IMG/VR virus record: IMGVR_UViG_2718218358_000002
Strand: one strand, 5' to 3'
Source of the DNA: a virus
Lineage: Duplodnaviria > Heunggongvirae > Uroviricota > Caudoviricetes
DNA: 36,691 nucleotides
Under the pieces are notes generated by a model. That model did not search any database. It was not told the DNA's origin and worked only from the letters and a program-made list of their open reading frames with translations. Shown here one piece after another: positions 27,525-28,802 of this stretch (the stretch's first letter is position 1; every line of letters starts with the position of its first letter). The position numbers and the translations under genes were made by a program.

Positions 27525-28802
27525 ATGATTTCACGCTGGAAATGGATGCTGAAGCAGACATTTAAAAAACTATGGTTCAGGGCAACGTTATTCGCAATTG
27601 TCGCAATAATAACGGCCCTTTTATCAATTCTTTTTAAATCAATGATACCTGAGTCGGTTTCCGTGAAGGTTGGTGCGGAAGCAGTCGATAACATTCTGAA
27701 CATACTGGCATCGAGTATGCTGGCAGTGACCACATTTTCGCTGAGCATCATGGTCACAGCCTACGGTTCAGCCACTACTAATGTGACTCCCAGAGCTACT
27801 CGTTTAGTTGTTGAAGACGTCACCACACAAAATGTACTGGCCACCTTCATCGGTTCTTTTCTCTTCAGTCTGGTAGGGATTATTGCCCTCAATATGGGAG
27901 CTTATGGAGAAAGGGGGAGAGTCATTTTATTCATTGTAACACTGGTTGTCATTGCCTTAATCCTCATCACATTGCTTCGCTGGATACAGCATTTGACCTC
28001 TCTGGGGAGGGTTGGTGAGACAACGGCAAAAGTAGAACAGGCGGCCATCGAAACATTTATTGCGAGAGCAAGAAATCCCTGTCTCGGCGGATATCCATGG
28101 CTTGAGAACAATGAACAGCCGAAAGGAACGGTTGCAGTTTATCCGAAAAAGATTGGCTATGTTGAATATGTTGATATGGTGAAACTCAGCAAGCTGCTGA
28201 CCAATGATCCCCGTCATGTATACCTCGTGGCGCAGCCGGGCAGTTTCATACATCCGTCCACGCCAGTTTTGTACCTGAGTCAGGGCCAGGAGTCATCAAT
28301 CAGCACCGATTTACTTGAGACGATTATTGTCTCGGATGTACGTTCATTTGCTCAGGACCCCCGATTTTGTCTTAGCGTCATGGCCGAAATAGCCTGCCGA
28401 GCCCTTTCCCCCGCAGTGAACGATCCTGGAACCGCCATTGATGTCATTGGCAGAGGTGTACGTATACTTTCCGCTTACGCGCAGAATAAATCTGATGAAA
28501 TAGAAGTGAAATATCCTTCTGTACATGTTGCACCACTTCAGAATAACGATCTACTTGAAGACTTTTTCTCACCTGTTGCGCGCGATGGTGCCAGTATGAG
28601 GGAAATTCAGATAAGGGTCCTTAAAGGACTGTCGATGCTGAGTAAGGGTTGGCCTGGAATTTTTGCTGAAGCCGCACAAACCCTAGCATTTGAAACATTA
28701 GAGCATGCTACTCGTGCTGACCATATAGATTCTGACAGATATCTAATAAAATCAATTTATTATAATTTATTTAGTGGCGAAGATTCTAATAAAAAACCAT
28801 AG
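27525..28802 (+). CDS. Hypothetical membrane protein, 425 aa (four N-terminal TM helices, large C-terminal soluble domain; possibly DUF2254-like)
   Basis: ATG at 27525 with GAGGGA RBS; four hydrophobic helices in the first 150 aa; AT-rich; family assignment is from memory and uncertain. Confidence 0.6.
   Translation: MISRWKWMLKQTFKKLWFRATLFAIVAIITALLSILFKSMIPESVSVKVGAEAVDNILNILASSMLAVTTFSLSIMVTAYGSATTNVTPRATRLVVEDVTTQNVLATFIGSFLFSLVGIIALNMGAYGERGRVILFIVTLVVIALILITLLRWIQHLTSLGRVGETTAKVEQAAIETFIARARNPCLGGYPWLENNEQPKGTVAVYPKKIGYVEYVDMVKLSKLLTNDPRHVYLVAQPGSFIHPSTPVLYLSQGQESSISTDLLETIIVSDVRSFAQDPRFCLSVMAEIACRALSPAVNDPGTAIDVIGRGVRILSAYAQNKSDEIEVKYPSVHVAPLQNNDLLEDFFSPVARDGASMREIQIRVLKGLSMLSKGWPGIFAEAAQTLAFETLEHATRADHIDSDRYLIKSIYYNLFSGEDSNKKP

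Follow-up and report, generated by a model that had tools for sequence, protein, structure and literature searches.

A mobile betU-DUF2254 gene pair in the Z/fun-position hotspot of a P2-like prophage and its probable connection to ion and osmotic homeostasis

The window analysed here, a stretch of 36,691 nt to the full length of which all coordinates refer (IMG/VR record IMGVR_UViG_2718218358_000002), is a P2-like prophage with three cargo open reading frames (ORFs) between the tail-fibre assembly gene G (24615-25142) and the sheath gene FI (30089-31279), that is, in the Z/fun-position hotspot of P2. The plus strand encodes a 667-aa BetU-type osmoprotectant transporter of the BCCT family (25458-27461; the RefSeq start at 25464 yields 665 aa) and, downstream of it, a 425-aa inner-membrane protein of the DUF2254 family (27525-28802), which is the subject of this analysis; a 269-aa cysteine-rich protein (28943-29752, phrog_21495) is encoded on the minus strand. 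The first-pass annotation, made from the nucleotide sequence alone, described the second product as a membrane protein with four N-terminal transmembrane (TM) helices and a soluble C-terminal domain, tentatively assigned to DUF2254 and encoded in a defence hotspot on the same strand as a BetT-like gene and after a terminator. These elements of the description, including the location of the gene in the hotspot, are borne out by the results below; the proposal that the protein is a defence effector or sensor, which may work with either neighbour, requires more discussion.

The DUF2254 ORF starts with an ATG at 27525 and ends with a stop codon at 28802. It is preceded by a Shine-Dalgarno sequence, GAGG (27512-27515, plus strand), read from the sequence 9 nt 5' of this ATG; an alternative ATG at 27510 would give a protein of 430 aa. 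The RefSeq entry WP_000625667.1 is identical to the window protein and has the same start. A Pfam search identifies PF10011 with a score of 310.7 bits (E = 1.5e-92; the gathering threshold is 28.8 bits) over positions 3-366 of the 368 in the profile, so that the tentative family assignment proves right. Kyte-Doolittle analysis detects hydrophobic segments at residues 15-45, 57-79, 102-127 and 126-160, and an AlphaFold2 model of the full-length protein contains helices at residues 16-40, 49-86, 99-124 and 128-159; the soluble domain that comes after them comprises about 265 aa (approximately residues 160-425). Because the N-terminus is K/R-rich and the first loop acidic, we infer that both termini would be cytoplasmic. 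In the model, the cytoplasmic domain consists of a small beta-rich subdomain and a stack of helical hairpins. Structure prediction for this domain alone, which had been proposed as a check, produces a confident fold (pLDDT 89.7, pTM 0.86) but no informative solved relative. A profile search of PDB sequences started with the DUF2254 protein yields no match at E ≤ 1, and there is no match to it in NCBIfam.

The protein has the same four-TM plus C-domain architecture as PF10011/IPR018723 (DUF2254, predicted membrane protein), matches the family over its full length and shows no difference from it in sequence. This membership is uninformative with respect to function because the family, which comprises 5,868 clusters at 50% identity, includes no characterised member. 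A literature search for DUF2254, PF10011 and IPR018723 returns, as the only relevant items, a survey of AlphaFold models in which knotted or slipknotted members of the family are predicted (PMC11184937) and an enzyme guess from 2012 that was based on gene neighbours; most of the “PF10011” matches are Plasmodium gene identifiers. Sequence conservation is more telling. Among 67 representatives with 33-48% identity, the best-conserved parts of the protein are TM2 (3.14 bits per column), TM3 (3.02) and residues 273-310 (3.28), compared with 1.4-2.0 bits in the remaining soluble domain (1.7 in the beta-rich subdomain and 1.4 in the C-terminal helices). Residues 273-310 contain the invariant motif RSFxQDPRF...SPAVNDPGTAID; the family motifs SSMLAVTTFSL (in TM2), TPRAT, QDPRF and SPAVNDPGTA all occur in the window protein, and their conservation across the representatives is at least 80-90%. 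The extremely conserved TM2-loop-TM3 hairpin has a high content of Ser, Thr, Ala and Gly. Given that TM2 and TM3 are among the best-conserved parts of the protein, this membrane hairpin is not a mere anchor.

The product of the upstream gene matches the Pfam BCCT family with 663 bits and the BetT subfamily of NCBIfam with 752 bits (cutoff 695). The gap between betU and the DUF2254 gene is 63 nt, and the gene order is fixed across all mobile lineages, between which dN/dS is 0.02-0.03 for the BCCT gene and about 0.1 for the DUF2254 gene, indicative of purifying selection. The gap contains a GC-rich, terminator-like or attenuator hairpin (27469-27489, plus strand; ATGCCGCC-ACAGA-GGCGGCAT, followed by the T-rich TTATTTAT), the stem of which has been maintained by compensatory changes in six divergent versions of the pair (from the window, Klebsiella, Citrobacter, Enterobacter, Pluralibacter and a metagenome-assembled genome, MAG). 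A published plasmid transcriptome table gives values of 54 for BetU and of 16 and 4 for the next two hypothetical genes (PMC6286996). These two genes probably correspond to the DUF2254 homolog, and if so, the values fit attenuated read-through of the hairpin into DUF2254.

The two genes have spread together. Of the 72,556 plasmids in PLSDB, 1,470 cover at least 80% of the BCCT-DUF2254 pair. The majority of these 1,470 are conjugative Klebsiella IncFIB/FII plasmids, where the pair is about 93% identical to that of the window and is bordered by insertion sequence (IS) elements (on one Klebsiella plasmid, by IS1). The surrounding plasmid genes include sil, ars, crcB and those for GGDEF/EAL proteins. 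Identity of the DUF2254 gene reaches 100% on 68 plasmids from E. coli, Shigella, Salmonella and Klebsiella. The entire cargo block of about 4.7 kb is conserved with 99.9-100% identity at the same P2 position of three E. coli chromosomes as well as on IncFII plasmids and in a lambdoid prophage similar to Rac. A lambdoid prophage of Enterobacter asburiae harbours the pair at its tail-fibre end.

A pair of this type is also the apparent cargo of Tn6062, an IS1 composite transposon on the globally dominant IncHI1 PST6 plasmids of Salmonella Typhi H58, which was reported to carry “two putative transporters”, SPAP0105 and betU (SPAP0106); a 3,405-bp fragment of Tn6062 containing both coding sequences enables growth of S. 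Typhi at 0.8 M NaCl (Holt et al. 2011, PMC3139670). All 20 gene-specific bases of primer IS1056-03 from the same study match positions 28773-28792 of the window, the last codons of the DUF2254 ORF, and the length of the fragment is consistent with betU, the 63-nt gap and DUF2254; neither the window nor any of the loci retrieved contains a match to primer IS1056-04. On the strength of the primer match and the fragment size, the window pair appears to be the same two-gene unit as the Tn6062 cargo, with a betU-type BCCT gene directly 5' of DUF2254 in the window and osmotolerance shown for the Tn6062 pair. The means of movement differ: Tn6062 was moved by the flanking IS1 elements, whereas the window copy has no IS1 and is bounded instead by the class-A recombination sites described below. 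The gene is not a new object because many clinical plasmids encode the RefSeq entry to which its protein is identical, and because it apparently falls within the fragment already found to confer salt tolerance on S. Typhi. There is little doubt that the 27525-28802 product is a DUF2254 inner-membrane protein encoded in a mobile betU-DUF2254 context.

Membrane proteins are common effectors of abortive infection, and placement of the gene in a phage hotspot would be explained if the DUF2254 protein were an anti-phage effector or sensor of this kind or a superinfection-exclusion protein. The Z/fun-position of P2-like prophages is known to carry defence systems (PMC9122126; bioRxiv 10.1101/2024.10.15.618418), and the cassette system to which the pair belongs also holds a DUF2971 cassette that scores as the PADLOC candidate PDC-S31. 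However, a search of PADLOC-DB retrieves no family at E ≤ 0.01 for any of the three ORFs in the Z/fun hotspot, a meaningful negative because the product of another hotspot cargo gene in the same prophage (7813-9285) is recognised as the candidate system HEC-04 with 746 bits. The genomic context of homologs was analysed by annotating the neighbours in 80 species-level loci with DUF2254 homologs of 47-74% identity. Only three of the 143 immediate neighbours in 73 of such loci are defence-like (two TIR-like and one UvrD-like), contrary to the enrichment near defence genes that a defence protein might show. Furthermore, homologs about 50% identical are chromosomal and occur among Gamma- and Alphaproteobacteria and in a planctomycete MAG, the plasmid-borne pair is found amid metal and stress cargo, and osmotolerance is the sole phenotype for which the pair was tested (PMC3139670). 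A defence function, as suggested in the first-pass annotation, thus appears very improbable. More generally, these findings call for caution with guilt by location: P2 hotspots receive non-defence fitness cargo too.

The recurrent neighbours of DUF2254 genes are housekeeping transporters of ions and osmolytes. The top Pfam families among the immediate neighbours are NhaA (8 cases), BCCT (4), GntP (3), ClC (3) and the CPA1 Na+/H+ exchanger (3); MscS, MgtE, CBS and cNMP-binding proteins are also encoded repeatedly near the homologs. In the 80 loci, 24 of the 36 matches to ion or osmolyte transporters are located within 600 bp of the DUF2254 gene, compared with 3 of 25 for LysR/GGDEF controls (Fisher p = 2e-5), the remaining control matches being scattered over 0-6 kb. 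For this large uncharacterised family, the genomic context therefore points to ion/osmotic homeostasis, and we consider such a role, as opposed to phage defence, to be the probable one for the window protein, with appreciable room for doubt.

The positional specificity of the ion-transporter adjacency also bears on the possibility that DUF2254 is an unrelated passenger, a membrane-anchored enzyme or some other protein that was captured beside betU from a donor chromosome, as the “guanosine phosphorylase” guess of 2012 would have it. This is improbable, given also that conservation peaks in the TM2-TM3 hairpin and in one motif, with no recognisable catalytic domain; that the phosphorylase matches cover about 96 residues with 16% identity and are not significant; and that the gene has remained intact under purifying selection across several independent mobilisations.

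A closer functional connection would exist if DUF2254 were a dedicated accessory or regulatory subunit of BetU, with no activity alone, that tunes osmotic activation, stability or substrate range of the transporter. The fixed gene order with the 63-nt gap in all mobile lineages is compatible with this possibility, as is the independent BCCT adjacency in distant taxa (in differing gene orders in Pluralibacter, Pantoea eucrina and an alphaproteobacterial MAG) and the fact that betU and DUF2254 were cloned and tested as a pair. Nevertheless, it seems rather unlikely: no BCCT gene is present within 8 kb in 71 of the 80 homolog loci, and the adjoining transporter varies among the unrelated families NhaA, CPA1, ClC, MscS and MgtE. 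Clustering of 558 neighbour ORFs yields no conserved partner gene, with no family represented in more than 8 of 73 loci. On the Citrobacter plasmid pBM527-1 (L089 7063-10403), the BCCT gene has decayed into three fragments next to an intact DUF2254 gene, which argues against strict dependence on the transporter and fits a parallel, independent role.

Within ion/osmotic homeostasis, we tentatively suggest, with less than even confidence, that DUF2254 has a channel- or transporter-like activity of its own. The TM2-loop-TM3 hairpin would most likely provide, probably within an oligomer, a membrane site that conducts ions or solutes or senses ions, and the cytoplasmic domain with its invariant motif would control this site. 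DUF2254 would work alongside transporters such as BetU, NhaA, CPA1, ClC and MscS without being a dedicated subunit of one particular transporter, and would probably be expressed below BetU through read-through of the conserved intergenic terminator. The small-TM channels of the MscS family offer an analogy, with few TMs, a large cytoplasmic domain, a context of osmotic stress and genes that are recurrent DUF2254 neighbours; there is no sequence or fold similarity between the two, and no claim of membership is made.

Several observations weigh against this reading as a whole, the role in ion/osmotic homeostasis included. The TM region of the full-length model has a pLDDT of only 55-72, and comparison of the full-length and C-domain models with solved natural structures reveals nothing beyond generic helical repeats, which leaves a pore without structural support. 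About 70% of the DUF2254 loci have no adjoining ion transporter, and the neighbour counts are phylogenetically non-independent, most of the NhaA cases coming from Pseudomonas. In the 2004 work of Ly and colleagues, BetU alone reportedly transports betaine, so that DUF2254 may be dispensable for the salt phenotype. The decay of the BCCT gene on pBM527-1 is likewise to be counted here, as is the fact that the salt phenotype was obtained with betU and DUF2254 cloned jointly (PMC3139670). A still bolder and rather doubtful proposition is that DUF2254 represents a new osmoregulatory ion- or solute-conducting family, the phage- and plasmid-borne members of which would contribute, together with BetU, to horizontally transferred salt tolerance in S. 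Typhi H58, Klebsiella, Shigella and E. coli, the unit spreading among phage hotspots, prophages and plasmids via a little-studied system of site-bounded cassettes.

This cassette structure of the hotspot is a more interesting side observation than the gene itself. A 24-nt site that consists of 9-bp inverted arms (GTCYGCTYT / ARAGCRGAC) and a 6-bp spacer (hereinafter, the 9-6-9 site) is present in exactly three copies in the window (at 25192, 28865 and 29873) and in none of 100 shuffled versions of it. The three sites, all on the plus strand, fall into two classes by their spacers. The first class-A site (25192-25215, GTCCGCTCT-GTGCCA-AGAGCAGAC) forms the left edge of the BCCT-DUF2254 cassette; the second (28865-28888, GTCTGCTTT-GTGCCA-ACAGCGGAC) forms both its right edge and the left edge of the cassette with the 269-aa gene; and the class-B site (29873-29896, GTCTGCTTT-TCGCTC-AAAGCAGAC) marks the right edge of the hotspot cargo. 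The two class-A sites are in direct orientation, with a start-to-start distance of 3673 bp. In the plasmid and Rac-prophage copies, homology with the window begins at the 25192 site. Phage pro147 is homologous to the window up to 25215 and again from 28865, with one site (L004 4050-4073) in place of two. This collapse of two class-A sites into one identifies the BCCT-DUF2254 unit as a precise 3,673-bp insertion, and such an insertion between direct sites with the GTGCCA spacer is the remnant that integration of a circular cassette would be expected to leave. The route of arrival is thus visible: the cargo came as a cassette at a short recombination site that is common to phages, prophages and plasmids.

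The 9-6-9 sites are found in P2-like hotspots, in other prophages and on IncF plasmids (loci L001, L002, L004, L085 and L090-L170 of our collection). A scan of viral contigs for the class-A site identified at least 120 stretches, of which 80 loci were read. The units in these viral loci are typically bounded by a class-A and a class-B site and carry many different cargos; flanks of the P2 type are present in only about a quarter of them, and the BCCT-DUF2254 cassette is located 5' of at least four different resident cassettes. In the plasmid and Rac-prophage arrays, every gene is bounded by sites, and site halves are swapped between neighbours. The two heterospecific spacer classes suggest that cargo could be exchanged by double crossover.

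The array genes are the BCCT-DUF2254 pair, the 269-aa gene, a 200-aa gene of the tyrosine recombinase family and a 476-aa orphan (phrog_27609). The 200-aa protein (WP_001752951) belongs to the Phage_integrase family, lacks the N-terminal DNA-binding domain and is itself encoded in a site-bounded cassette; the orphan is bounded by 9-6-9 sites as well. The two cassettes occur in permuted order on the plasmid (L001 13748-14350 and 14923-16353) and in the Rac prophage (L002 13228-15401). The 200-aa protein is the obvious candidate for the mover of the cassettes.

The pair itself has been mobilised in at least two ways, by IS elements without 9-6-9 sites (Klebsiella plasmids, e.g., L088 with about 93% identity, and Tn6062) and as a site-bounded cassette, the latter being the form of the E. 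coli, Shigella and Salmonella copies with 100% identity. In the Rac-like prophage of E. coli AST215 (L002 9001-16452, 22191-23648), the cassette array precedes trkG by about 6 kb; the 2004 study of Ly and colleagues reportedly examined the distributions of betU and trkG together. In the Enterobacter asburiae prophage, the DUF2971 gene (L085 9341-10332) is located directly 3' of the pair and is flanked by sites of the same type, which indicates that the cassette system carries defence candidates besides the osmoprotection unit. The chromosome of Pantoea sp. GD03673 contains two perfect sites (L080 9458-9481 and 12760-12783) just 3' of a DUF2254 homolog with 50% identity, a hint that such cassettes may also exist in chromosomes outside prophages.

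The window cargo occupies the same genomic position as the P2 Z/fun hotspot cargo (Nilsson, Karlsson and Haggard-Ljungquist 2004; GenBank AJ512683) but differs from Z/fun in content, being an osmoprotection module and a Cys-rich orphan. In P2-EC58 (AJ512683), the annotated left inverted repeat has a class-A site as its inner end and the right one a class-B site, so that the phenomenon has been at least partly described by Nilsson and colleagues. Neither Rousset et al. 2022 nor the iLund4u preprint mentions the BCCT-DUF2254 cargo or the 9-6-9 sites. Integron gene cassettes and the pdif (Xer) modules of Acinetobacter similarly involve short palindromic sites that bound modules of one or a few genes and form arrays on various replicons. 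Unlike these systems, the one described here has sites that are not dif- or attC-like, two heterospecific spacer classes and, as the only nearby recombinase, the 200-aa cassette protein, and it is known from sequence alone. A dif/Xer origin of the 9-6-9 sites was considered and rejected on sequence.

The remaining hotspot gene, on the minus strand, encodes the 269-aa protein with the pattern CxxC...HxxPPKC...CxxC (CNICGK...DHVPPKC...CSHCNNK in the window), which has no match in Pfam, PADLOC, NCBIfam or PDB. This gene is the only hotspot cargo in pro147, occurs as a 1008-bp unit between a class-A and a class-B site in 12 of the 80 viral loci, and is not found in any of the 80 DUF2254 homolog loci. 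Being alone in pro147 and absent from these loci, it represents a separate cassette and was rejected as a partner of DUF2254. The suggestion that DUF2254 may work with either neighbour therefore holds in part, for the BCCT gene, which travels with DUF2254 as one unit, and fails for the 269-aa gene. Compared with DUF2254, the 269-aa protein is the better candidate for a phage-related function.

Elsewhere in the window, the P2-like genes include those for the integrase (1897-2910), replication protein A (5427-7721), the portal protein (9652-10686) and tail fibre H (22521-24611). A 389-aa ORF of low GC content (0.36) is located on the minus strand (18941-20110), antisense among the tail and baseplate genes at the P2 orf30 position, and has no Pfam or PADLOC match. 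The HEC-04 candidate (7813-9285, plus strand) is a 490-aa AAA_21/AAA_15 ATPase, also encoded by a gene of low GC content (0.39), which is located between replication gene A and the portal gene, that is, in the old/tin-position hotspot.

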